From NCBI GenBank assembly GCA_016699595.1, contig CP064982.1, positions 276,563 to 340,562 of the forward strand: a stretch of DNA of 64,000 nt, in the 5' to 3' direction. Position numbers and translations under genes: made by a program. Of this stretch, positions 52,221 to 63,584 are shown piece after piece. Position 1 is the first letter of the stretch. Every line of letters begins with the position of its first letter. Below the pieces are notes generated by a model. The model saw only the letters and a program-made list of their open reading frames with translations. It had not been told where the DNA came from and did not search any database. This DNA comes from a bacterium (GTDB lineage Bacteria > Patescibacteriota > Dojkabacteria > GCA-016699595).

Positions 52221-53978
52221 ATGAACTTTTTTCGTTATTATAAAACCTATAGGTTATTCGCTCAAAAAAATAAATCTATTTACTACTTTTCATTTGTAAT
52301 GGTTTTTCTTTTTTCAGCTGTACTAAATTTATCAACTTTTACTGTTGGACAACTAATCAATGAGTTTAAGCTCGGAGATATAAATTTGTTTCGCAATATT
52401 GGATTAATTGCATTGACTTTAGTTTTACCTAGCATTTTTGAACCCATACTTTTTACCTTAAGAAATAAATTATATGTCAATGTATATACAGATGTTTTAA
52501 AAAATGTATACTCCAAAACTTTGTTACAAGATTACGACTACCATACAAAGAGATCTTCAGGCAAATTAATAAATATTATTTTGAAATCAGATACAATAGT
52601 CGACATTTATTTATATTCGTTTGAATTGATCTTATTTATGGGTATTATTGAAACTTTAGTAATTATTACTTTTATCGCAATTGTGTCGCCTAAGCTTATT
52701 ATACCTATAATTATTACACAATGTATTTTGATTTATCCTGAAGTATATTCAATTACAAGAAGTGTACGATTAAGGAGATCAGCCAAAAATGACGAACATG
52801 AGGTAGCTATTTATGTGTCTGACATTTTAAACAGCTACGAAAATGTGAGATCGTTTAGAAAAGAGAATTTTGAAATTAATCGTTTCTTTGAAATTGCAAA
52901 TAGACTAAATAAGTCAGTCTATTCATATATGCAAGGATTTAGGTTGATGGATGTGGTTATGGCAATCAATCAAATTTTGACCGTTTTGCTTACTGCATCA
53001 GTAGCTATTAAGCTTTATACTTTAGGAGAAATTACATTTGCAAATTTAATAGTTGTTATTTCTTTTTTACTTACTCTCAAAAATAAGGTTTCCAGTGTTC
53101 TATTGGCAATCCGTAATACCTTCAAAGATATAAGTCGCTTAGAAGATACCATTGACTTGCTAAATTTACCAGAATCTGTAGTAAAAATTGGAAACCAAAC
53201 TATCGATTTAGAAAAACCTATTGATATAAAGTTTGAAAATATTTCTTTTGAATATAATTCAAATAAGCCTATTATCAATAATTTAAGTCTAGAGATAAAA
53301 CATAAAGAAGATATTGCTTTTGTAGGACCATCTGGTGGAGGTAAAACAACATTAGTCAAATTGCTACTACGATACTACCTAGTTGATAGTGGAAGAATTT
53401 TGATAAATGATATAGACATAAAGGATCTGAAAGAGGAAACTCTACAAATGATATTTGCTGTTGTACCTCAAGATCCTGTTATGTTTAATCAGTCACTACT
53501 TTACAATATTGGTTATGGACTAGATGTTGACCCAACTCAACTAGAAAATCATATGGCTAGCATTGTCGAAGTTTGTAAGAAGGCTCAAATTTATGATTTT
53601 ATCATGTCACTTCCTGAAGGTTTTGATACGAAAGTAGGAGAGCGTGGAATCAAGCTATCTGGAGGTCAAAGACAAAGAGTAGCGATTGCAAGAACATTAC
53701 TCAAAGATCCAAAAGTAATAATATTTGATGAAGCAACATCTATGCTTGATTCCGAAAGCGAGCATGCAATCCAATTAGCAATCTCCGAAATAGCAAGAGA
53801 AAAAACAATGATTTTCATAGCCCATAGACTTTCAACGATTAGACATTGCGACAAAATATTTGTAATAGATAGTGGAGAATTGATAGAGAGTGGAACACAT
53901 AAAGAATTACTTGCTGGAAATGGGATCTATAATAAGATATGGAATATACAAAGTGGAGGGTTTATCAATTTCAAGTAA
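52221..53978 (+). CDS. ABC transporter, fused permease/ATPase exporter (MsbA/multidrug-type).
   Basis: Six-TM N-terminal domain, Walker A 'GPSGGGKTT', signature 'LSGGQRQRVAIAR', Walker B 'IIFDEATS'. Confidence 0.85.
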   Translation: MNFFRYYKTYRLFAQKNKSIYYFSFVMVFLFSAVLNLSTFTVGQLINEFKLGDINLFRNIGLIALTLVLPSIFEPILFTLRNKLYVNVYTDVLKNVYSKTLLQDYDYHTKRSSGKLINIILKSDTIVDIYLYSFELILFMGIIETLVIITFIAIVSPKLIIPIIITQCILIYPEVYSITRSVRLRRSAKNDEHEVAIYVSDILNSYENVRSFRKENFEINRFFEIANRLNKSVYSYMQGFRLMDVVMAINQILTVLLTASVAIKLYTLGEITFANLIVVISFLLTLKNKVSSVLLAIRNTFKDISRLEDTIDLLNLPESVVKIGNQTIDLEKPIDIKFENISFEYNSNKPIINNLSLEIKHKEDIAFVGPSGGGKTTLVKLLLRYYLVDSGRILINDIDIKDLKEETLQMIFAVVPQDPVMFNQSLLYNIGYGLDVDPTQLENHMASIVEVCKKAQIYDFIMSLPEGFDTKVGERGIKLSGGQRQRVAIARTLLKDPKVIIFDEATSMLDSESEHAIQLAISEIAREKTMIFIAHRLSTIRHCDKIFVIDSGELIESGTHKELLAGNGIYNKIWNIQSGGFINFK

Positions 53979-54106
53979 CGAACAATAATTTATAATTTTT
54001 ATTTTTTCCTCTTTTTAGACCATATTTATTGCATTATAATTACCTTTATTTGTAATGTTGTCATTCACATAGATAGATAATCTTCCCAATTAAGTACTAG
54101 GTACAG

Positions 54107-55120
54107 TCAAAATTTTATCATCATTACCTCTTTCATCATATCCAAAGTTTCTGAAGCTCTATTTTTTGCTACTTTAGTTCCTTCCATAGTCAAATTTAAC
54201 AATTGATCAACTTTAGATTCAGCTTCATTTCTTTTCTCTCGAATTGGAGTTAAATATTCGTTCATTGCTTGAAATAATTTTTCTTTTACCTCAACATCGC
54301 CAACTTGACCTTTTGTATATCTATCTTTCAAATCTTGAACTTCATCTAAGTTTGAATTAAACAAATCATGATAAGTAAATGCTACATTCCCTTCAATATG
54401 ACCTATATCAGTTGCTCGAACTCTAGTTGGATCAGTATAAACTGAAAAGACTTTCTTGCGAAGTTCTTCTTCAGAGTCTGACAAATAAATTGCGTTATTT
54501 AGTGATTTCCCCATCTTTTCATTTCCATCAATCCCCGGAACATTTCTTTCAACTCCAAGCAAAGCTTCTGGAAGATTGAAAATGTTAGAATTGTAAGTTG
54601 CATCAAACTTTTGAGCAATATCTCGAGTTTCTTCAATCATTGGAAGTTGATCTTTTCCAACTGGAACCAAATCTGCTCGAACTGAAAGTATATCTGCGAC
54701 TTGATGAATTGGATAAAAGAAAAATCCAAGTGGGGTTGATTTTTCAAAACCTTCTTTTGTTTTCATTTCTTGTTTAACGGTTGGATTTTGTGCTACTTGT
54801 TGAACTGAAACAAAATTTGAAAAGTAAACAAACATTTCATGAATTTGCGGAACTTCTGACTGGATAACTATATGAGATTTTTCAAAGTCTATACCAACTG
54901 CATAATAATCTTTAAGTAGCTCAACAATGCTATTTTTTACTTTTTGTGGATTATCAAAGTTATCTGAAAGTGCTTGAACATTTGCAATCAGGATAAATTG
55001 ATTATACTCTTCTTGTAGTCTAACTCTATTTTGAAGCGAACCAAGTAAGTGCCCAATGTGAAGTTTTCCAGTTGATCTATCTCCAGTTAATATTGTTTTT
55101 TTTGAATTTGTGTTTGACAT
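54107..55120 (-). CDS. trpS: Tryptophan--tRNA ligase.
   Basis: HIGH motif 'TGDRSTGKLHIGHLLG', KMSKS motif 'KMGKSLNNA', and overall class Ic TrpRS length and pattern. Confidence 0.85.
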   Translation of the reverse strand: MSNTNSKKTILTGDRSTGKLHIGHLLGSLQNRVRLQEEYNQFILIANVQALSDNFDNPQKVKNSIVELLKDYYAVGIDFEKSHIVIQSEVPQIHEMFVYFSNFVSVQQVAQNPTVKQEMKTKEGFEKSTPLGFFFYPIHQVADILSVRADLVPVGKDQLPMIEETRDIAQKFDATYNSNIFNLPEALLGVERNVPGIDGNEKMGKSLNNAIYLSDSEEELRKKVFSVYTDPTRVRATDIGHIEGNVAFTYHDLFNSNLDEVQDLKDRYTKGQVGDVEVKEKLFQAMNEYLTPIREKRNEAESKVDQLLNLTMEGTKVAKNRASETLDMMKEVMMIKF

Positions 55121-55150
55121 GATTATATTTCAGGATATTTTATAAAATTT

Positions 55151-55179
55151 AATACAAAATAACAAAAAATCCCGCACTT
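55151..55179 (-). terminator. Intrinsic terminator-like hairpin about 30 nt upstream of the trpS start, in its 5' leader. Candidate attenuator.
   Basis: Minus-strand 'AAAUCCCGC-caagu-GCGGGAUUU' (9-bp perfect stem) followed by 'UUUUUUG'. An upstream 'ACUUGGCG' could pair alternatively with 'CGCCAAGU' in the 5' arm. Confidence 0.5.
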
Positions 55180-55355
55180 GGCGGGATTTACATTTGACAA
55201 TATATGTAAAAGTCAACGCCAAGTAGGAATAATTTGATTATGCCATGAATTTTGTTTTCTTGATTGAAATAACATTGCTTTATAATATTACAGATTATAG
55301 CATCTACTTTGATTTAGTAGAATGATTTTCCGTTCAATGTTATAATTTGCGATTC

Positions 55356-55428
55356 GCGAAAGTAATTCAGTTGGTAGAATGCTTCCTTCCCAAGGAAGAT
55401 GTCGCGGGTTCGAATCCCGTCTTTCGCT
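55356..55428 (+). tRNA. tRNA-Gly (anticodon CCC), 73 nt, CCA not encoded.
   Basis: Cloverleaf by eye: acceptor GCGAAAG/CTTTCGC with discriminator U, D-arm ATTC-AGTTGGTA-GAAT, anticodon arm CTTCC-TTCCCAA-GGAAG (anticodon CCC), T-arm GCGGG-TTCGAAT-CCCGT. Confidence 0.85.
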
Positions 55429-55477
55429 GTTTTCTTTTCTTATTGCCTAATCTTTAACTATCATATACAATAAATAT

Positions 55478-56794
55478 ATGGCAACTAAATATATTGTTAC
55501 AGGTGGATATAAACTAAATGGAGAAATCTCAGTACAATATTCAAAAAATATTGCTATGAAACTACTTATGAATCCTCTCTTAGTTGAGGGGGAATATTTA
55601 ATAAAAAATATTCCCCGAATTACATCAACCTTTAATTTAATTAAAATACTAGAATTTTTTGGATGTGTCTGTTCTTGGAAAAGTAATCATGATGTATTTG
55701 TAGACAGTAGGAATTTGAATCCAAATGCTGTTATGTCTGATGAAACATTTTCTCATACAAGTAGTGCAATACTTGCAGTTCAAATATTAGTTGGACGGTT
55801 TGGTAAATGTGTGTTCGAAAAGAAAGATTTAGAAAATATTGGAGGAGATAGAATTGGATCAAGACAATTCCAAATTACAATTGATGCTGTTAAAAATTAT
55901 GGAATATCTGTTGATATAAAGAATGAAACGATTATTTTTACTAGAATAAATCAAGAAGGCTTTGAACAAATAATTCCCGATGAGTCATATGGAATTTCTG
56001 TTGGAGCATTATATTCAGCATTATTTAAAGAGAGCAATTCTCGTATAACTGGAATAACTAAGCAACCTGATTTCAAGATAATTCTACAGAATTTAAAACA
56101 AATGGGAGTTAAATATACTTTAGAAGAAAATGAATTAATAGTCGAGCCATTTAAACCAGATACAGCTAAATTTGAACTAGTGAATATTTCTGATTGGCAT
56201 GATTTTGCAACATTAGTCTTTATGGGAATAATTACAGAATCGTCTCTTAGGATAAATAATTTTAATTTTGAATATATGGCAGGTGATGTTATGGTAGATT
56301 ACTTAACAAGACTGGGAGTAGCATTCACATGTCAAGGGACCAGTTTCCTTTTGCATAAAAACAAGTTACAATCACTCCGCCCAATTGATATTATTGCGTC
56401 TGTGACACCCTCATTTATGACTGAATGGCAAGTTCTTATATCTGCTTTATTAACACAAATAAATGGTTATTCACATATTGCTGAACTTTGGTTTACAGAT
56501 AGAATGAGCCACTGGAATGAGCTAAAAAAAATGGGTGCTAATTTTACTTATTTGCCTAATAGACAAAGTAGACAAAATAAACCTTTCGTAGTAAGAGTGT
56601 TAGGAAGATCTAAATTAGTTGGTACAACAGTTACTGCTGAAAATCTCAGATCTGGTGCAGTACTTATAATGGCAGCACTAGTTGCAGAAGGCAAAACAGA
56701 CATTTTAGGAGTTGAACATATTGAAAGAGGATATGATAATCTTGTGCAAAGATTAAATAATATTGGGGCACATATTGAAGTTAGGACTATATAA
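55478..56794 (+). CDS. murA: UDP-N-acetylglucosamine 1-carboxyvinyltransferase MurA, with Asp at the fosfomycin-targeted active-site position.
   Basis: N-terminus 'YIVTGGYKLNGEISVQYSKNIAMKLLMNPLLVEGEYLIKNIPRI' follows the MurA pattern (I.GG..L.GEV.ISGAKNAALPI…). The active-site loop 'GGDRIGSR' aligns with E. coli 'GGCAIGAR' and M. tuberculosis 'GGDAIGSR'. Confidence 0.85.
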   Translation: MATKYIVTGGYKLNGEISVQYSKNIAMKLLMNPLLVEGEYLIKNIPRITSTFNLIKILEFFGCVCSWKSNHDVFVDSRNLNPNAVMSDETFSHTSSAILAVQILVGRFGKCVFEKKDLENIGGDRIGSRQFQITIDAVKNYGISVDIKNETIIFTRINQEGFEQIIPDESYGISVGALYSALFKESNSRITGITKQPDFKIILQNLKQMGVKYTLEENELIVEPFKPDTAKFELVNISDWHDFATLVFMGIITESSLRINNFNFEYMAGDVMVDYLTRLGVAFTCQGTSFLLHKNKLQSLRPIDIIASVTPSFMTEWQVLISALLTQINGYSHIAELWFTDRMSHWNELKKMGANFTYLPNRQSRQNKPFVVRVLGRSKLVGTTVTAENLRSGAVLIMAALVAEGKTDILGVEHIERGYDNLVQRLNNIGAHIEVRTI

Positions 56795-56840
56795 ATAGTT
56801 AAGTTTTAGGGGATATCTAAATTCTCCATTTTTTATTGCA

Positions 56841-56862
56841 GTTTGAATCCCGTCTTTCGCTG
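56841..56862 (+). repeat. 22-nt direct repeat of the tRNA-Gly 3' end (1 mismatch) just downstream of murA. Looks like an att-site-style duplication.
   Basis: 'gtttgaatcccgtctttcgctg' (56841-56862) against the tRNA 3' end 'gttcgaatcccgtctttcgctg' (55408-55429), same orientation, bracketing murA. Confidence 0.6.
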
Positions 56863-56887
56863 AAAATTATAATGTAAAAAAATAAAC

Positions 56888-57268
56888 ATGAAAGAATATG
56901 TATTAGCCTCTCCTCAGAAGAGATTGAATTATACTTTATACAAACAACCAATTTTCATTTTTTTACTATTGCTAAATTTACTTTTGTTTTTACTTATGTT
57001 GTACTTGGTTTTTTCTAAATACAACTCGATTCCAAACATTACTCCGTTTTTTTATAATTACGCTACAAATAATTACGAGTTATTTGATAAAAAGTTTTTA
57101 TTCTTACTTCCCACCTTGAGTTTTTTTTACTTGATAGTACAAAATCTAATGAATTTTAAGCTTCCTGAAGAAAGACATTTTTTTATCAATTTTATTTCAG
57201 GTGTTTTTAGCGTAACAAACATCTTTTTTATACTTTTTTTGACTTATACTATTTCAACTTCTGTTTAA
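56888..57268 (+). CDS. Small polytopic membrane protein, hypothetical.
   Basis: 126-aa ORF with three hydrophobic helices. AT-rich, so spurious origin is possible. Confidence 0.35.
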   Translation: MKEYVLASPQKRLNYTLYKQPIFIFLLLLNLLLFLLMLYLVFSKYNSIPNITPFFYNYATNNYELFDKKFLFLLPTLSFFYLIVQNLMNFKLPEERHFFINFISGVFSVTNIFFILFLTYTISTSV

Positions 57269-57401
57269 ATTCAAATTACATTTAAAGCATATTTTTGACA
57301 TCAATCAAACACAAATAAATATTTTTTTAGTATTCATCACAGGAAGCATTATTACTTTTTTATGCACTCTCCCCATTACAAAGCTAGCGAAAAAAGTAGG
57401 T

Positions 57402-58379
57402 TTGATTGACCTACCAGCCGAACTAAGAAAGCTTACAGATTCAACAAAAGCTAGAAGAATCCACAAAACATTAACTATAAGATCAGGTGGGATTTCTATT
57501 ACTGTAGCATTTTTATTGCTTTATTTGCTCTTTTTCAACGATATATCAACTATTAGCACAAATACTTACTTCACAATTTTAATTGGGTTAATTATTTTAA
57601 CCGTTTTAGGAATACTAGATGATAAGTTTGAAATAAAGGGGAAATATCAATTGATAGTACAATTATTTGTCGTCTCCATAGTAGTGCTAGGTGGCGTTCA
57701 AATTTCAGAAATTGACAAAGGTTTGCCAGGAATTGTCATATTACCTGATTATATTGCAAAATTTGTTTCTGTAGCATGGATTATGATTTTGATAAACGCT
57801 ATTAATTGGGTAGATGGAATAGATGGATTGTCAACTGGGATTGTAAGTATTGCAGCATTTATTATTTCTATTTTGAACTTACAACAAGGAAATGTAGATG
57901 TTGCCATTTTGAGTATGATGCTTTCAGGAGCTACATCAGGATATATTCCTTGGAATTTTCCTCCAAACAAAGGTACATTTGTCGGAGGAACTGCAATAAA
58001 CTTTGGTTACTTACTCGGTGTGATATCGATACTTGGATCTACCAAATCTGCTAGTTCAATGTTAATTTTACTTTTGCCTATTCTTGATATGATTTGGGTT
58101 ATAATCAATAGGATCAACAAGCATGAAATACTAAACCCTATCAAACTCTTGGGAATTTCTGACAAAACTCACTTGCATCATAGGCTTTTGGACCTTGGAT
58201 TAAGTGTAAGACAGGTAACGCTTATTGAATATATGATAATATCTATAATAGGAGCAATTTTGGTGTATACAAGTGAAGCAAGCAAAACAACTGCTTTGCT
58301 GAGTATTGGAATTATCATACTTGGCATTTTTCTTTTGATAAGTTTTACAAATAATCATAAACGAAAGAATGAAAAATAA
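57402..58379 (+). CDS. GT4-family polyprenyl-phosphate N-acetylhexosamine-1-phosphate transferase (MraY/WecA family). The reading frame stays open and conserved-looking upstream to 57285, but no canonical start codon lies in that stretch.
   Basis: 'NAINWVDGIDGLSTG', 'LGILDDKFEI' (DDxxD), and a ten-TM pattern. The upstream in-frame translation '…FLVFITGSIITFLCTLPITKLAKKVGLIDLPAELRK' resembles the usual MraY/WecA N-terminus. Confidence 0.75.
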   Translation: MIDLPAELRKLTDSTKARRIHKTLTIRSGGISITVAFLLLYLLFFNDISTISTNTYFTILIGLIILTVLGILDDKFEIKGKYQLIVQLFVVSIVVLGGVQISEIDKGLPGIVILPDYIAKFVSVAWIMILINAINWVDGIDGLSTGIVSIAAFIISILNLQQGNVDVAILSMMLSGATSGYIPWNFPPNKGTFVGGTAINFGYLLGVISILGSTKSASSMLILLLPILDMIWVIINRINKHEILNPIKLLGISDKTHLHHRLLDLGLSVRQVTLIEYMIISIIGAILVYTSEASKTTALLSIGIIILGIFLLISFTNNHKRKNEK

Positions 58380-58740
58380 AGCAAAGATAAAAACAATCAA
58401 GTTTTCAATACTTTCTAGCAGAATACTTAGTGCGATTATTTTTTTTAATGCAATTTTGACTTTTCTAGTTAACAAAGAGAAGTACTTATCTTCACTTAGT
58501 TTTGAAAATTACAATGAATTATTTTTTGTAACTGGTCAATTTATTCAAGTAGTTGTATCTATTACTGTTCTTCTTAGCTATTCATGGATTTCAGAATGGT
58601 TTTTGAAAATTGTAGAAGATGAACTTCATAGTTTCAAAGTAACTTATAGCGATAGTCCAAAGCGAAGTTCTTATACAGATAAAACAAGTCAAAATAAATT
58701 ATTTAAAAAAGGATTCAAGAAACACTCCAAAGTCAATTGA
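58369..58740 (+). CDS. Small membrane protein, hypothetical.
   Basis: 123-aa ORF with two hydrophobic helices. Overlaps the upstream gene's stop by 11 nt. Confidence 0.35.
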   Translation: MKNKAKIKTIKFSILSSRILSAIIFFNAILTFLVNKEKYLSSLSFENYNELFFVTGQFIQVVVSITVLLSYSWISEWFLKIVEDELHSFKVTYSDSPKRSSYTDKTSQNKLFKKGFKKHSKVN

Positions 58741-58841
58741 AAGCAACCTACCTAAATTTTTATTTGTAATAATTGAACTTGACAAGTTTATTATACTATT
58801 TGAAATTAGCACAATTATTTTTTACCTAAATTCTAATACAA

Positions 58842-59567
58842 ATGGCATTAGCACTATTTTCAATAACAACTATTAGCTTTACTTCGTTTCTTATACTTAT
58901 AATCCTATCAAGGAAAAAGTTATTTGCCAGAAACCTAAATCTGATATTGGCACTAGCATCTGGAGCATTACTTGGAGAAGTATTTTTACATATTATTCCA
59001 GAATTCAGCAGTTTATCATCTGAGATATTTTCAACTATTATTCTTTTATCTGTTTTTTCAAACTACTTTGTAGAAATTATTTTGAATGTAAGACATTGCC
59101 ATAATTTAGAACATCATCATGAAGCAGAAACAACAAAGAGTTCATTGCGTTTCCGTTTGATAATTTCTGATATTGTTCACAATCTTTTGGATGGATTTAC
59201 TTTATTTGCAAGTTTCATAATATCAACTGAACTCGGTATTGCTACAACATTAGCAATATTACTTCATGAGATACCAAAAGAAATTAGCTCTTTTGCTATG
59301 CTTATTGAAGCAGGCTTTACAAAAACTAAAGCAATAAAGATAAACCTACTAACAGCTATTGCTGGTATAGTAGGGGTAGTTGTTTCTAACTATGCAAACT
59401 TGTCAGATTATTCAGAGTATTTGCTAGCATTTGTAGCAGGTAATTTTCTTTATATTGCTATGACAGATATACTTCCTGAGTTACATTTGACCGAGTCAAA
59501 AAAATCAGGCTTACTGAAGCTTCTTGCTTTTAGTGTTGGAGTAGCAATCATGTGGCTTATGAAGTGA
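58842..59567 (+). CDS. zupT: ZIP-family divalent metal (zinc) transporter, ZupT-like.
   Basis: 'HNLLDGFTLFASF' and 'LHEIPKEISSFAML' (the HEIPQE…FA motif of the ZIP family), with a roughly eight-TM pattern. Confidence 0.8.
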   Translation: MALALFSITTISFTSFLILIILSRKKLFARNLNLILALASGALLGEVFLHIIPEFSSLSSEIFSTIILLSVFSNYFVEIILNVRHCHNLEHHHEAETTKSSLRFRLIISDIVHNLLDGFTLFASFIISTELGIATTLAILLHEIPKEISSFAMLIEAGFTKTKAIKINLLTAIAGIVGVVVSNYANLSDYSEYLLAFVAGNFLYIAMTDILPELHLTESKKSGLLKLLAFSVGVAIMWLMK

Positions 59568-59644
59568 TAGTTTTAAGTTGCTAAAGCATAGGGAAGTAAT
59601 TTACATTATTTTCAAATCATTTGTATTTTTGATAGAATAAAAAT

Positions 59645-60709
59645 ATGAACATACAAAAGAATGTAAACTTACAACCTTATCTTACTTTACAAACAATCGC
59701 ATATGCTGACTATTTTTCTACATTTCAAAACATCAGCGAACTTATTGAACTTCTAAATTTTGCAAAATCACAGGATTTGCAGGTTTTCTTTCTTGGTGAA
59801 GGTGCCAATACATTTTGTAAATCAAACTTTCAAGGTATTGTTTTGAAAAACGACACAAAAGGAGTGAGCATTATTCGTGAAACAAATGAATACATATACT
59901 TCCAAGTTGCATCTGGTGAGAACTGGCATGACTTTGTGATGCATACAGTTAGTAAAAATCTTTTTGGATTGGAAAACTTAGCTTTTATTCCCGGAAGTAT
60001 TGGTGCTTCGCCAATTCAAAACATAAATGCATATGGATTTCAAATGAGTGATATATGTACAGATGTTCAAGTGCTAGACCTTGAAACATTTGAAGAATCA
60101 ACATTAGAAAATGAAGATTGTAAATTTAAATATAGAAGTAGTATTTTCAAAAATGAAGCAAGAAATAAGTACTTTATTGCTTCTGTAACTTTCAAACTTT
60201 CAAAGATAAATCATATAAATATTGATTATGGCAATACATATGGTTCAGTCAAGCAGGTATTGCTTGAAGCTGGAAAAGACTTATCTAAATTGACATCTCT
60301 AGATATTGCAGAATCAATAATTCGATTGAGAACAAAAAAACTACCTGATTTGAATCTCACTCCTAATGCCGGCTCTATATTTGTAAATGTCTTTTGTGAT
60401 AAAAACGAGAAGGAACGAATAGAGACTATAGAAGCCAAGCTTAGAGAAGAAAATCCTTCACTATCTAAGTGTGAATTTTATACTGAAAATGATAATTTAT
60501 ATAAAATTCCAGCGGGTTGGTTGGTTGAAGCTGCTGGATACAAAGGGAAATGGTTTGGCAATGTAGGTGTATCAGAAAAACATGCATTGATTTTAGTTAC
60601 GAATGGCAAGGCCACTGGTCTCGAACTTTATGATTTAGTAGAAAAGATTCAGAATAGCGTTTACGAAATGTTTGGAATCAGACTGGAGGCAGAACAAAAT
60701 ATTATTTAA
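59645..60709 (+). CDS. murB: UDP-N-acetylenolpyruvoylglucosamine reductase MurB.
   Basis: FAD-binding N-terminal region '…FFLGEGANTF…' and C-terminal 'AGWLVEAAGYKGKWFGNVGVSEKHALILVTNGKATG' (compare MurB A.WLIE.AG.KG…G.A.VS.KHAN.IVN.G.AT). Confidence 0.85.
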   Translation: MNIQKNVNLQPYLTLQTIAYADYFSTFQNISELIELLNFAKSQDLQVFFLGEGANTFCKSNFQGIVLKNDTKGVSIIRETNEYIYFQVASGENWHDFVMHTVSKNLFGLENLAFIPGSIGASPIQNINAYGFQMSDICTDVQVLDLETFEESTLENEDCKFKYRSSIFKNEARNKYFIASVTFKLSKINHINIDYGNTYGSVKQVLLEAGKDLSKLTSLDIAESIIRLRTKKLPDLNLTPNAGSIFVNVFCDKNEKERIETIEAKLREENPSLSKCEFYTENDNLYKIPAGWLVEAAGYKGKWFGNVGVSEKHALILVTNGKATGLELYDLVEKIQNSVYEMFGIRLEAEQNII

Positions 60710-60743
60710 ACTTGATCAATTCGCAGTAATTTAGAAGTAAAAT

Positions 60744-60977
60744 TCAAACTACTAGTGCGAAAAATAATGCATAACCAAGAATTAGCAAGACAAGAAATAC
60801 CAAACTTAATCCCAAACCATATTGCCTAAAGTTTTTTACACCAGTTTGATCAGAATAATCTTTGTGCATGACTTTATCAAGTAATAGTGATAATGCTACA
60901 ATTGTAAAGATAAGGGTAGCAACATAAAAAATTATTCTACCTAGATTGACGAGAGACATTTGTATTTCATTGGGCAT
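60744..60977 (-). CDS. Small two-TM membrane protein, hypothetical.
   Basis: 77-aa ORF made of two hydrophobic helices. Confidence 0.35.
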   Translation of the reverse strand: MPNEIQMSLVNLGRIIFYVATLIFTIVALSLLLDKVMHKDYSDQTGVKNFRQYGLGLSLVFLVLLILGYALFFALVV

Positions 60978-61028
60978 ATTGTATGATATAAAACACGAGA
61001 TATTATTTCAATTGAAATTCCTAAATTC

Positions 61029-62120
61029 ATGAAGTTTTACAAAAAAATCTTAAAACCAATTTTATTTAAATTTCATCCAGATTATGTTCACATTGTTATT
61101 GTGAAATTAGGCAAAATTTTAGGACACTGGGCTCTTGGAAGGATGATTTTAAGAAAGTTTTTTTTCTATGAAAATAAACGATTAACTCAAAATATTTTTG
61201 GGTATGAATTCAAAAATCCGATTGGTATAGGTGGTGGGTTTGATAAAAATGCTGATTTGATAAAAACTTTGCCTGCATGCGGATTTGGCTTTGTAGAAAT
61301 TGGATCAGTAACTGCTAGAGCTTATAAAGGTAATAAAAGACCATGGAGCGTCAGATTGCCAGAAGACCAAAGTTTAATAGTAAATTATGGTTTAAAGAAT
61401 ATCGGCGCAGATAAAATTGCGCAAAAAATTAGAAATAACGGAAGATCAGTTCCACTTATCATCAATATAGCGAAAACCAATGATATTACAATCAAAGGAA
61501 ACTACTCAATAGCAGATTATGTATACAGTTTTCAAAAGTTACAAGAAAAAGCAGATATCATAAATTTAAACATTAGCTGTCCTAATACTGGTGATGGAGT
61601 TTTGTTTTGTGAATCTCCTGAGTTATTAGATAAATTGTTTCTTGCATTATCTAAAATAGAAATCAGCAAACCAATATTACTAAAGTTAAAACCAGATATT
61701 GATGATAATACTTTATACAAAATTTGTGATTTGGCTGAAAAGTATTTATTTATCAAAGGTTTCATCATATCAAACCTTACAGTTCATCGAGAAAATCTGA
61801 TACATACAAGCCTAGGTTCAATTGAAAAATTTCGAGGTGGAATTTCAGGTACTCCAGTAAAGGATCTGTCAAATGATATGATAAGCAAAGTATACAAATA
61901 TACAAATGGAAAGTTTATAATTATTGGACTTGGTGGAGTATTTAATGCGAAAGATGCTTATGAGAAAATATCTTTAGGTGCAAATCTTGTTGAAATTGTA
62001 ACTGGGCTTATTTACGAAGGACCATCTGTTGTGAAATCTATAAATAAAGGCTTGATTGAACTACTGGAAGTAGATGGATTTACAAACATAGCAGATGCTA
62101 TTGGGTGCAAAAATAAATAA
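61029..62120 (+). CDS. pyrD: Dihydroorotate dehydrogenase, class 2 (quinone-dependent, membrane-associated).
   Basis: 'NPIGIGGGFDKNAD', 'GFGFVEIGSVT', 'NISCPNT', 'IGLGGV' and the N-terminal extension typical of class 2 DHODH. Confidence 0.9.
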   Translation: MKFYKKILKPILFKFHPDYVHIVIVKLGKILGHWALGRMILRKFFFYENKRLTQNIFGYEFKNPIGIGGGFDKNADLIKTLPACGFGFVEIGSVTARAYKGNKRPWSVRLPEDQSLIVNYGLKNIGADKIAQKIRNNGRSVPLIINIAKTNDITIKGNYSIADYVYSFQKLQEKADIINLNISCPNTGDGVLFCESPELLDKLFLALSKIEISKPILLKLKPDIDDNTLYKICDLAEKYLFIKGFIISNLTVHRENLIHTSLGSIEKFRGGISGTPVKDLSNDMISKVYKYTNGKFIIIGLGGVFNAKDAYEKISLGANLVEIVTGLIYEGPSVVKSINKGLIELLEVDGFTNIADAIGCKNK

Positions 62121-62162
62121 TACTTCATAGCAAATTCATTTCTTCAGATTATGATTTGATTT

Positions 62163-62927
62163 ATGAAACAAACCTCTATACTCAAGAACTTAAAAGCCCT
62201 ATATATAATACTATTTTTAATTATAACTTTGTTTATACTTACATTATTTGCCTTTTATAATATAGTGAGTAGGATCAGATTAGCAAACACTGGAAATGAA
62301 AATGAATCTTTAACCTTTGCAGAAGATTTATCTCAAATCGATCCGTCTGATTTAATTGACCAAACCCAAGACTTAGAAGTAGATACTACTCTTACATTAT
62401 CTAAGGAAGAAGTTGAAGACTTGCAATTGATGAGAGAAGAGGAAAAATTGGCACATGATGTATATCTGAGTTTGTATGAAAGATGGAATATACAGATTTT
62501 TCGTAACATTTCAGAAAGTGAGCAAAAACATACAGATTCAGTAGCTAGATTATTGTCAAAGTATAATCTCTTCGATCCAGCCTCAGATATTGCGGGTAAA
62601 TTTGTAAATCAAAACATTCAAAACTTATATACTGAACTAGTAAATAGGGCTGCAGTTTCAGCTAATGAGGCTTTGACTGTTGGTGCAATAATAGAAGATC
62701 TGGACATATCTGATCTTGAGAAAACAATAGGTAGAACAACAAATTCAGATATATCGTTAGTATACAATAACTTACAAAAAGGGTCAAGAAATCATTTGAG
62801 ATCCTTTGCATCTGCATTAAGTAGAAATGGTATAAACTATCAACCAAATTATATCTCAAATGAATTGTATTTAAATATAATTAGCACAGCACAAGAAAAA
62901 GGTAATATGACAAAGTATCGAAAATAA
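62163..62927 (+). CDS. DUF2202 (ferritin-like superfamily) protein with an N-terminal TM helix.
   Basis: 'LQLMREEEKLAHDVYLSLYERW' and the downstream helical pattern match the DUF2202 ferritin-like signature. Confidence 0.55.
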   Translation: MKQTSILKNLKALYIILFLIITLFILTLFAFYNIVSRIRLANTGNENESLTFAEDLSQIDPSDLIDQTQDLEVDTTLTLSKEEVEDLQLMREEEKLAHDVYLSLYERWNIQIFRNISESEQKHTDSVARLLSKYNLFDPASDIAGKFVNQNIQNLYTELVNRAAVSANEALTVGAIIEDLDISDLEKTIGRTTNSDISLVYNNLQKGSRNHLRSFASALSRNGINYQPNYISNELYLNIISTAQEKGNMTKYRK

Positions 62928-62951
62928 AATTTTTTTAGAATATATTTCATT

Positions 62952-63584
62952 ATGCTCAGAGTTTTACCCTACACACATCAACTTAAAGTACTTTATACTT
63001 TGATTCGTAATAAAGACACAAATAATAAAGACTTTGTCTTTTACTCAGACAGAATTATTAGATTGCTTGTTGAAGAGGGATTGAACTTGCTACCTGTGGT
63101 TGACAGAAAAATTGTAACTCCTACAGGGAGAATGTTTGAAGGATATGACTTTGCAGGTAAAGTATGTGCTGTTTCAATAGTAAGAGCTGGTGAATCTATG
63201 GAAAAAGCGATTCGAGAAGTGTGTCAAAGTATCACAATTGGAAAAGTACTTATACAACGCAATGAAGAGAATGCACAACCCGTGCTTTACTATTCAAAAC
63301 TTCCAAAAGATGTATCAGAACGACATGTGTTTTTACTTGATCCTATGCTTGCAACTGGAGGATCAGCCATAACAGCTATTAATTTGCTAAAAGATAATGG
63401 TGTTGACGAATCAAAAATAATATTTTTAAACTTAATTTCCTGTCCAGAAGGTTTGAAGAAAGTTGGAGATCAATTTCCAAACTTAGAAATTGTAACTGGC
63501 TTTGTGGATCAGGAACTAAATGCAAAATCATACATATTACCGGGACTTGGAGATTTCGGTGATAGATACTTTGGTACTGAATAG
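62952..63584 (+). CDS. upp: Uracil phosphoribosyltransferase.
   Basis: 'YSDRIIRLLVEEGL' and the PRPP-binding motif 'FLLDPMLATGGSA'. Confidence 0.9.
   Translation: MLRVLPYTHQLKVLYTLIRNKDTNNKDFVFYSDRIIRLLVEEGLNLLPVVDRKIVTPTGRMFEGYDFAGKVCAVSIVRAGESMEKAIREVCQSITIGKVLIQRNEENAQPVLYYSKLPKDVSERHVFLLDPMLATGGSAITAINLLKDNGVDESKIIFLNLISCPEGLKKVGDQFPNLEIVTGFVDQELNAKSYILPGLGDFGDRYFGTE

Follow-up and report, generated by a model that had tools for sequence, protein, structure and literature searches.

How did a single murA-like gene come to lie between two copies of the 3′ end of a tRNA gene in the genome of an ultra-small bacterium? The question is raised by a 64,000 bp stretch of a Dojkabacteria genome (GenBank assembly GCA_016699595.1, contig CP064982.1, positions 276,563 to 340,562 of the forward strand), which we call the window and number from its first base. 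An intact tRNA-Gly(CCC) gene at 55356–55428 (+ strand; 69.7 bits against the Rfam tRNA model), the sole tRNA called by ARAGORN in the window, is followed on the same strand by a murA-like gene and then by a second, partial copy of its own 3′ end. The unique part of the segment so enclosed (55430–56840, + strand) measures 1,411 bp, or 1,433 bp with one repeat copy, and is absent from a closely related strain. We regard it as probable that 55430–56862 is a minimal islet, lacking an integrase and resembling the elements known as CIMEs (cis-mobilisable elements), and that it arose at the 3′ end of tRNA-Gly(CCC), the presumed integration target, by site-specific recombination of the tyrosine-integrase type.

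The two copies of the repeat lie in the same orientation and agree at 21 of 22 positions, the single mismatch leaving an exact stretch of 18 nt. Copy 1 (GTTCGAATCCCGTCTTTCGCTG, 55408–55429, + strand) occupies the position of an attL core, and copy 2 (GTTTGAATCCCGTCTTTCGCTG, 56841–56862, + strand), an intergenic fragment of a tRNA 3′ end located 46 nt past the murA-like stop codon and 25 nt ahead of the next open reading frame (ORF), that of an attR core. A first-pass annotation of this DNA, made by a model from the letters alone, had described the last 22 nt of the tRNA as recurring with one mismatch; the recurrence held, and the register needed correction, as the repeat consists of the last 21 nt of the tRNA (positions 53–73) and one base past the discriminator. 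It begins with the final base of the 5′ T-stem strand, runs through the T-loop and the 3′ strands of the T-stem and the acceptor, and ends 1 nt beyond the discriminator. The edges are sharp, with 95% identity within the 22 nt and nil outside. With up to three mismatches allowed, the 64 kb contained no matches besides copies 1 and 2 (the sequence quoted for seeking further copies being GTTYGAATCCCGTCTTTCGCTG), and the 22-nt repeat was the sole direct repeat of at least 13 nt within 55100–57300.

Between the copies there is a 48 nt spacer, the murA-like ORF, a 46 nt spacer and nothing further. The ORF (55478–56794, + strand) encodes 438 aa, is deposited as QQR93846.1, "hypothetical protein IPJ91_01660", and starts 48 nt past copy 1 and 49 nt past the tRNA. 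No other ORF of at least 60 aa was found in the segment, the one smaller candidate being a 51-aa antisense ORF inside the murA-like gene. Two statements of the first-pass annotation, that murA is the only gene between the copies and that the segment has no integrase, were therefore borne out: an integrase gene beside the tRNA, the usual island trait, was not found in the segment, where the sole ORF is the murA-like one.

A comparison of the locus in related genomes, proposed earlier as a check, uncovered an empty site in a sister strain, here termed strain B to set it apart from the strain of the window (strain A). The site is carried by a 933-nt Logan contig from SRR30164251 (L243). Nucleotides 2–100 of this contig match window 55331–55429 at 98 of 99 positions, covering the flank upstream of the tRNA, the complete tRNA-Gly(CCC) and the extra G, and nucleotides 79–933 match window 56841–57695 without gaps at 96.7% identity. 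The two alignments overlap in the 22-mer alone and skip the stretch 55430–56840; the 1,433-bp murA-like segment is absent and the breakpoints lie exactly at the repeat. In L243 the tRNA-Gly(CCC) is intact according to ARAGORN, its single copy of the repeat (nucleotides 79–100) is identical to copy 1, and this copy is followed by AAAATTATAATG and, further on, the ATG of a membrane ORF, the 96%-identical variant of a 126-aa ORF of the window. The attB junction of the empty site accordingly reads ...GTCGCGG-core-AAAATTATAATG, and the order in strain B is tRNA, 22-mer, membrane ORF and GT4 transferase gene. A contig from a second sample (L244, SRR30164240), which begins inside the membrane ORF and matches the window at 96.7% identity over 4 kb, overlaps L243 by 516 nt at 100%, so that strain B can be taken as a genuine close relative. 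The segment is an insertion or deletion whose two ends coincide exactly with the repeat, the behaviour expected of an attL/attR pair. Variable presence between strains and an unoccupied attB made up of left flank, one repeat and right flank are both traits by which islands are recognised, and both were found here (L243, L244).

Chance similarity or an assembly artefact has a practically negligible probability as the source of this pattern. The one point in its favour is the general one that the sequence is AT-rich and comes from a metagenome assembly. No match to the repeat arose in 100 dinucleotide-preserving shuffles, and the structure is identical in the NCBI metagenome-assembled genome and in a Logan contig. 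The Logan contig, assembled from SRR11674035, agrees with window 53445–63449 at 100% identity, both repeat copies included, and since the two assemblies agree the occupied arrangement is not peculiar to one of them. Logan assemblies use k = 31. The exact stretch shared by the copies (18 nt), and indeed the whole repeat (18–22 nt), is shorter than this, which leaves a de Bruijn assembler unable to bridge it or to make the empty junction by collapsing the repeat.

Copy 2 differs from copy 1 by a C to T change at conserved T-loop position 56, a C in functional tRNA. We found no stable RNA fold at 56770–56900 (z = +0.31) and no match of copy 2 to an Rfam family, and a functional RNA at this place was ruled out on both counts. 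The same T-loop variant, TTTGAAT (GTTTGAATCCC), occurs in intact tRNA-Gly(GCC) genes on two Flavobacteriales contigs (L020 and L115), and from this we conclude that the T is tolerated in some real tRNAs. It had also been suggested that copy 2 is the remnant of a duplicated tRNA, that is, the tail of a tRNA-Gly gene that was duplicated in tandem and decayed, unrelated to mobile DNA. Although tRNA pseudogenes exist and the T-loop of copy 2 is seen in working tRNA-Gly genes, we consider this origin very improbable. In the 60 nt upstream of copy 2, aligned as 56780–56840, the 5′ part of the tRNA is not recognisable (the local score was 11, and shuffles averaged 12), an identity of 95% inside 22 nt gives way to none outside, and a full-length tRNA would overlap the murA-like stop codon. 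Strain B, moreover, has a single clean site with breakpoints at the repeat; the suggestion was rejected on this ground and on the missing 5′ homology.

The geometry is one that is well described for islands and prophages in tRNA genes. Integration yields a complete copy of the tRNA and an incomplete one at opposite ends of the element (PMC9897764), and this is the arrangement seen here, with the complete tRNA at one end and a direct partial 3′ copy at the other. The repeats of tRNA-linked islands span 15–221 bp with a mode of 20–25 bp and lie mostly in the T-loop, T-stem and 3′ acceptor strand, many attB sites beginning in the T-loop (bioRxiv 10.1101/2020.11.02.365908); the 22-bp repeat has both the typical sublocation, from T-loop to 3′ end, and the modal length. 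In mycobacteriophage Ms6 a 26-bp core runs across the T-loop and 3′ end of tRNA-Ala, and single changes in the T-loop strongly cut integration (PMC1762012). The islet shares with such T-loop islands and prophages an intact tRNA, a direct 3′ repeat, here of 22 bp, and an empty site. It departs from them in its size of 1.4 kb with one gene and in lacking an integrase, any other element genes and a compositional anomaly, and from Ms6 in particular in that the Ms6 core holds the whole 5′ T-stem strand whereas the repeat holds 1 nt of it.

CIMEs are a defined class of elements that have kept attL and attR and lost their integration genes (PMC5704250). Like them, the islet has att-like repeats at a tRNA 3′ end and no recombination or transfer genes (PMC5704250). 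CIMEs, on the other hand, were defined in Bacillota beside mobilising ICEs (integrative and conjugative elements), whereas no parent or helper element is known here; the host is a bacterium of the candidate phyla radiation (CPR) type with a genome of ~0.76 Mb, and the content is one gene. Decay of an ICE or IME gives rise to a CIME, which the integrase of a related element can then mobilise; an element related to the islet was not found in viral or phage collections.

We propose that a circular DNA carrying a copy of the T-loop-to-3′-end sequence (attP) would have recombined with the tRNA gene (attB). The left junction (attL) would have regenerated an intact tRNA, and the displaced 22-bp tRNA end would have stayed at the right junction (attR); the predicted attP is ...TTTTTTATTGCA-core-TTTTCTTTTCTTATTGCC. 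From this geometry we infer the involvement of an integrase, which would either be encoded elsewhere and act in trans or have disappeared by deletion from an element that was once larger. The C to T difference in the T-loop of attR may go back to attP itself or have arisen by mutation afterwards, and by analogy with the Ms6 T-loop changes that reduce integration it would be expected to hinder excision. The first-pass annotation had read the two copies as the signature of integrase-mediated insertion into a tRNA 3′ end, a view that the repeat geometry and the exact empty site support, the integrase itself being the inferred part. A further point in favour of integration is that the nearest homologues of the murA-like gene lie in other contexts with no tRNA nearby.

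A number of observations weigh against this interpretation. No integrase or other recombinase was found anywhere in the 64-kb window, ORFs of non-obvious function included. No phage or element bearing the attP was found either, and the murA-like gene has no close relative in phage collections. In the spacers of the segment, arm-type or terminal repeats were not significant, a shared 7-mer being expected in 37% of shuffles, and the left half of the inferred attP is without the T-stem dyad expected of a symmetric core. At 1.4 kb the islet is far below the described tRNA-linked islands, the smallest of which in a Klebsiella survey is about 3.5 kb (bioRxiv 10.1101/2020.11.02.365908). The empty junction is documented by one contig (L243). 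Deviant composition or codon usage, another island trait, was not seen in the murA-like gene. Gain in strain A and loss in strain B both fit, and no outgroup spans the site.

The composition of the gene bears on where it may have come from. Its GC content is 31.1% (window, 0.31), with 17% at third codon positions (GC3), and by fit of synonymous codons it ranks 35th among 47 genes, closer to the rest of the window than the majority of genes. A comparison of its GC and codon bias with the flanks had been put forward as a means of detecting transfer; it yielded no anomaly, and a foreign composition of the gene was rejected because both GC and codon usage are native-like. If the gene was acquired, it follows that the donor was compositionally alike or that the gene moved within the lineage. 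The horizontal acquisition of murA suggested in the first-pass annotation is thus borne out only insofar as the gene is strain-variable at this site, its GC and codon usage being typical of the genome.

A scan of the genome collection with the 21-mer returned unrelated loci, mostly tRNA-Gly genes of Bacteroidota and Bacillota, because the 21-mer forms a generic 3′ end shared by many tRNA-Gly genes of bacteria; the sole CPR match was a tRNA-Gly(GCC) in a different context in another Dojkabacteria sequence (L037). In the viral collections all 28 of 28 matches to the 21-mer were whole tRNA genes, with no att fragments among them, and a pattern specific to the tRNA of this lineage had no match in viral contigs or JGI metagenome contigs.

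The direction of the change was approached through relatives of the genes on either side. A contig from SRR28161541 whose TrpRS is 88% identical (L154) ends 44 nt short of the region. Relatives with TrpRS at 61–69% identity have a tRNA-Met, and no tRNA-Gly, beside trpS. Among relatives of the GT4 gene (L157–L162) there was no tRNA and no murA, or the contigs were too short, and the gene orders of these more distant relatives of both genes differ. An alternative to gain is that tRNA, murA-like gene and tRNA fragment are the ancestral arrangement, and that strain B lost murA by a deletion, mediated by RecA or by slippage, from one 22-bp repeat to the other. Only the direction of change is at stake here, as the repeat would still derive from an older integration. 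Such a deletion leaves precisely the one-copy junction that L243 shows; the codon usage of the gene is native-like, murA is normally essential, and the gene lies near murB and the GT4 gene. The non-functional copy, however, remains 21/22 identical although the nearest relatives differ by 19–25% in coding DNA, which points to a recent event. Further, no MurA of the same subfamily from the strain B samples was present in the protein collection, so strain B would have lost its sole subfamily copy, and the other members of the subfamily whose contexts were read (L001–L004) never lie beside a tRNA. We therefore consider loss in strain B unlikely, though by no means far-fetched. The absence of the protein from the strain B set is consistent with a murA-like gene that is dispensable or located on unassembled DNA; in strain A, no second murA was found within the 64-kb window.

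What the segment carries was examined at the level of the protein. It matches the Pfam family EPSP_synthase (PF00275) over residues 8–426 with an E-value of 2.4e-38. All 32 of 32 PDB matches are MurA, aligned end to end. Its best NCBIfam matches are likewise murA models, at scores below the curated cut-offs (TIGR01072, 239.9 against 392.7 bits; NF006873, 248.2 against 297 bits). Alignment to solved MurA structures places an Asp at the position of Cys115 ("ggdrigsrq" against "ggcaigqrp"), which substantiates the Asp variant noted earlier. Such an Asp makes the MurA enzymes of Mycobacterium tuberculosis and Chlamydia naturally insensitive to fosfomycin. The equivalents of K22, N23, R120 and R397, which together with Cys115 we take to be the catalytic and ligand residues in MurA numbering, are invariant, while Ser stands in place of the MRAS Arg and Glu in place of the Asp in the PTDMQ motif. 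The protein is like the Asp-type enzymes in having Asp in the GGD-x-IG-x-R loop together with the K22, N23, R120 and R397 equivalents, and unlike them and canonical MurA in that its identity to canonical MurA is at most 30%, with the sub-threshold NCBIfam scores given above. The gene may encode an active, fosfomycin-insensitive MurA.

Judged by its sequence, the protein falls into a MurA-like subfamily that is small and very divergent. A word-indexed search found five relatives at 35–52% identity, and an exhaustive search with 50% clustering roughly 25–30 representatives at 31–53% identity, all other proteins being at about 30% or below. The proteins concerned are that of window 55478–56794, P0001–P0005 and P0336–P0358. 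The subfamily has lost the MRAS Arg, has TEWQ in place of PTDMQ and carries an insertion of 6–7 aa before the Cys/Asp loop, changes that fall at positions which bind ligand or are catalytic in canonical MurA. Of the six members aligned, five have Asp at residue 115 and one Cys. Relatives on four contigs (L001–L004) stand in unrelated contexts, the member on L002 directly after murB, and no tRNAs or flanking repeats were found near any of these four. In phage collections only canonical murA at ~27% identity was found, and IMG/VR gave nothing. Two observations from the protein collections may be recorded here: a 53-aa peptide (P0318) of unrelated appearance, from a Logan contig of 1,537 nt, represents the 90% cluster of the murA-like protein (P0317), which accounts for the missing self-match in the word-indexed search, and among the results of the exhaustive search is a fragment of 87 aa (P0359) with 100% identity to the C-terminus of the murA-like protein.

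With the tRNA 49 nt before it and, after it, a cell-envelope operon in the same orientation (membrane ORF, GT4, ZIP and murB), the gene is probably expressed by read-through. This compact layout invites comparison with an integron cassette, which the islet resembles in being a compact, probably promoterless single ORF with a short site, co-oriented downstream of a strong transcription unit. It differs from a cassette in lacking the imperfect palindrome of attC (the z-score of +0.31 given above for copy 2), IntI and attI, the site being a tRNA 3′ end, and no IntI-type integrase was found in the 64-kb window. One may nevertheless ask whether the segment is a self-contained single-gene cassette, the mobile unit always having been a circle of ~1.4 kb with the murA-like ORF and the 22-bp tRNA-end site; the integrase would come from another locus of the genome or from a co-resident element, and the tRNA 3′ end would act as attI. 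In keeping with this are the extreme compactness (48 + 46 nt of non-coding DNA and no pseudogene debris), the co-oriented position immediately after a transcribed tRNA and before an operon, the difference in presence between strains only 3.3% apart, and a native-like codon usage of the kind expected for exchange within a lineage. Yet neither an integrase acting in trans nor a circular form nor a second cassette was seen, and the exact MurA-like protein occurs on one contig only. The homologues on L001–L004 are without flanking repeats or tRNAs, no attC-like hairpin is present, and the compactness is equally expected from decay, given that streamlined CPR genomes delete junk fast. On balance a cassette of this kind appears distinctly doubtful, and the broader proposition, that minimal-genome CPR-type bacteria shuffle single promoterless genes at a tRNA 3′ end behind a strong promoter with the integrase in trans, is speculative to the same degree or slightly more so. 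Were it true, it would amount to a system of gene exchange like that of integrons, using a tRNA as its attachment site and moving a fosfomycin-insensitive MurA-like enzyme.

The window has a GC content of ~31% and is rich in housekeeping genes typical of a small CPR/Patescibacteria-type genome. The left neighbour is the gene for tryptophan-tRNA ligase (trpS, 54107–55120, − strand; Pfam tRNA-synt_1b, 1.4e-56; product identical to QQR93845.1), which is divergent from the tRNA. On the right, the host flank (56863–58379, + strand), which in strain B directly follows the tRNA, comprises the 126-aa membrane ORF (56888–57268, + strand) and the gene for a GT4 WecA/MraY-like transferase (57402–58379, + strand; product identical to QQR93847.1). 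The order on the + strand to the right of the segment is the membrane ORF, GT4, a ZIP transporter and murB.

Several features of these flanks were noted in passing. The 126-aa membrane ORF is missing from the NCBI protein set, in which QQR93846 and QQR93847 are consecutive, and is intact in strain B at 96% amino-acid identity; small membrane ORFs without detectable sequence similarity to it also precede GT4 in two distant relatives (L157 and L161). The GT4 protein has 325 aa, against 474–475 aa in its closest full-length relatives, which have ~36 more N-terminal and ~135 more C-terminal residues. Its gene is overlapped at the 3′ end by a 123-aa ORF (58369–58740) that is only 89 aa in strain B (L244). 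We tried and rejected the notion that this ORF is the split-off C-terminus of GT4, as it shows no similarity to the GT4 C-terminal extension. The 3′ side of the GT4 gene may be decaying or rearranged. On the other side, a terminator-like hairpin with a T-tract lies on the − strand at 55189–55167 (within window 55160–55230), 47 nt upstream of the trpS start, with no gene upstream for it to terminate. The region upstream of trpS gives a weak match to the Rfam family Trp_leader (25.5 bits, below the gathering score of 41), and the 3′ half of the hairpin with its T-tract is conserved at the start of the L154 contig. This hairpin may be a trpS attenuator.

If integration at the tRNA is the right explanation, the islet is an unusually small, integrase-less scar of a known type, the duplication of an att site at a tRNA gene. 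Its cargo is atypical for islands, namely a divergent MurA-like protein with an Asp substitution that standard annotation lists as "hypothetical". Two questions follow from this: whether the first step of peptidoglycan synthesis is exchangeable, or has an alternative, in these cells, and how an element without an integrase moves. The locus would represent a recent site-specific gain or loss of one cell-wall gene between near-identical strains of an uncultivated bacterium that is ultra-small (~0.76 Mb) and belongs to a group whose mobile elements and strain-level gene flux are poorly described.

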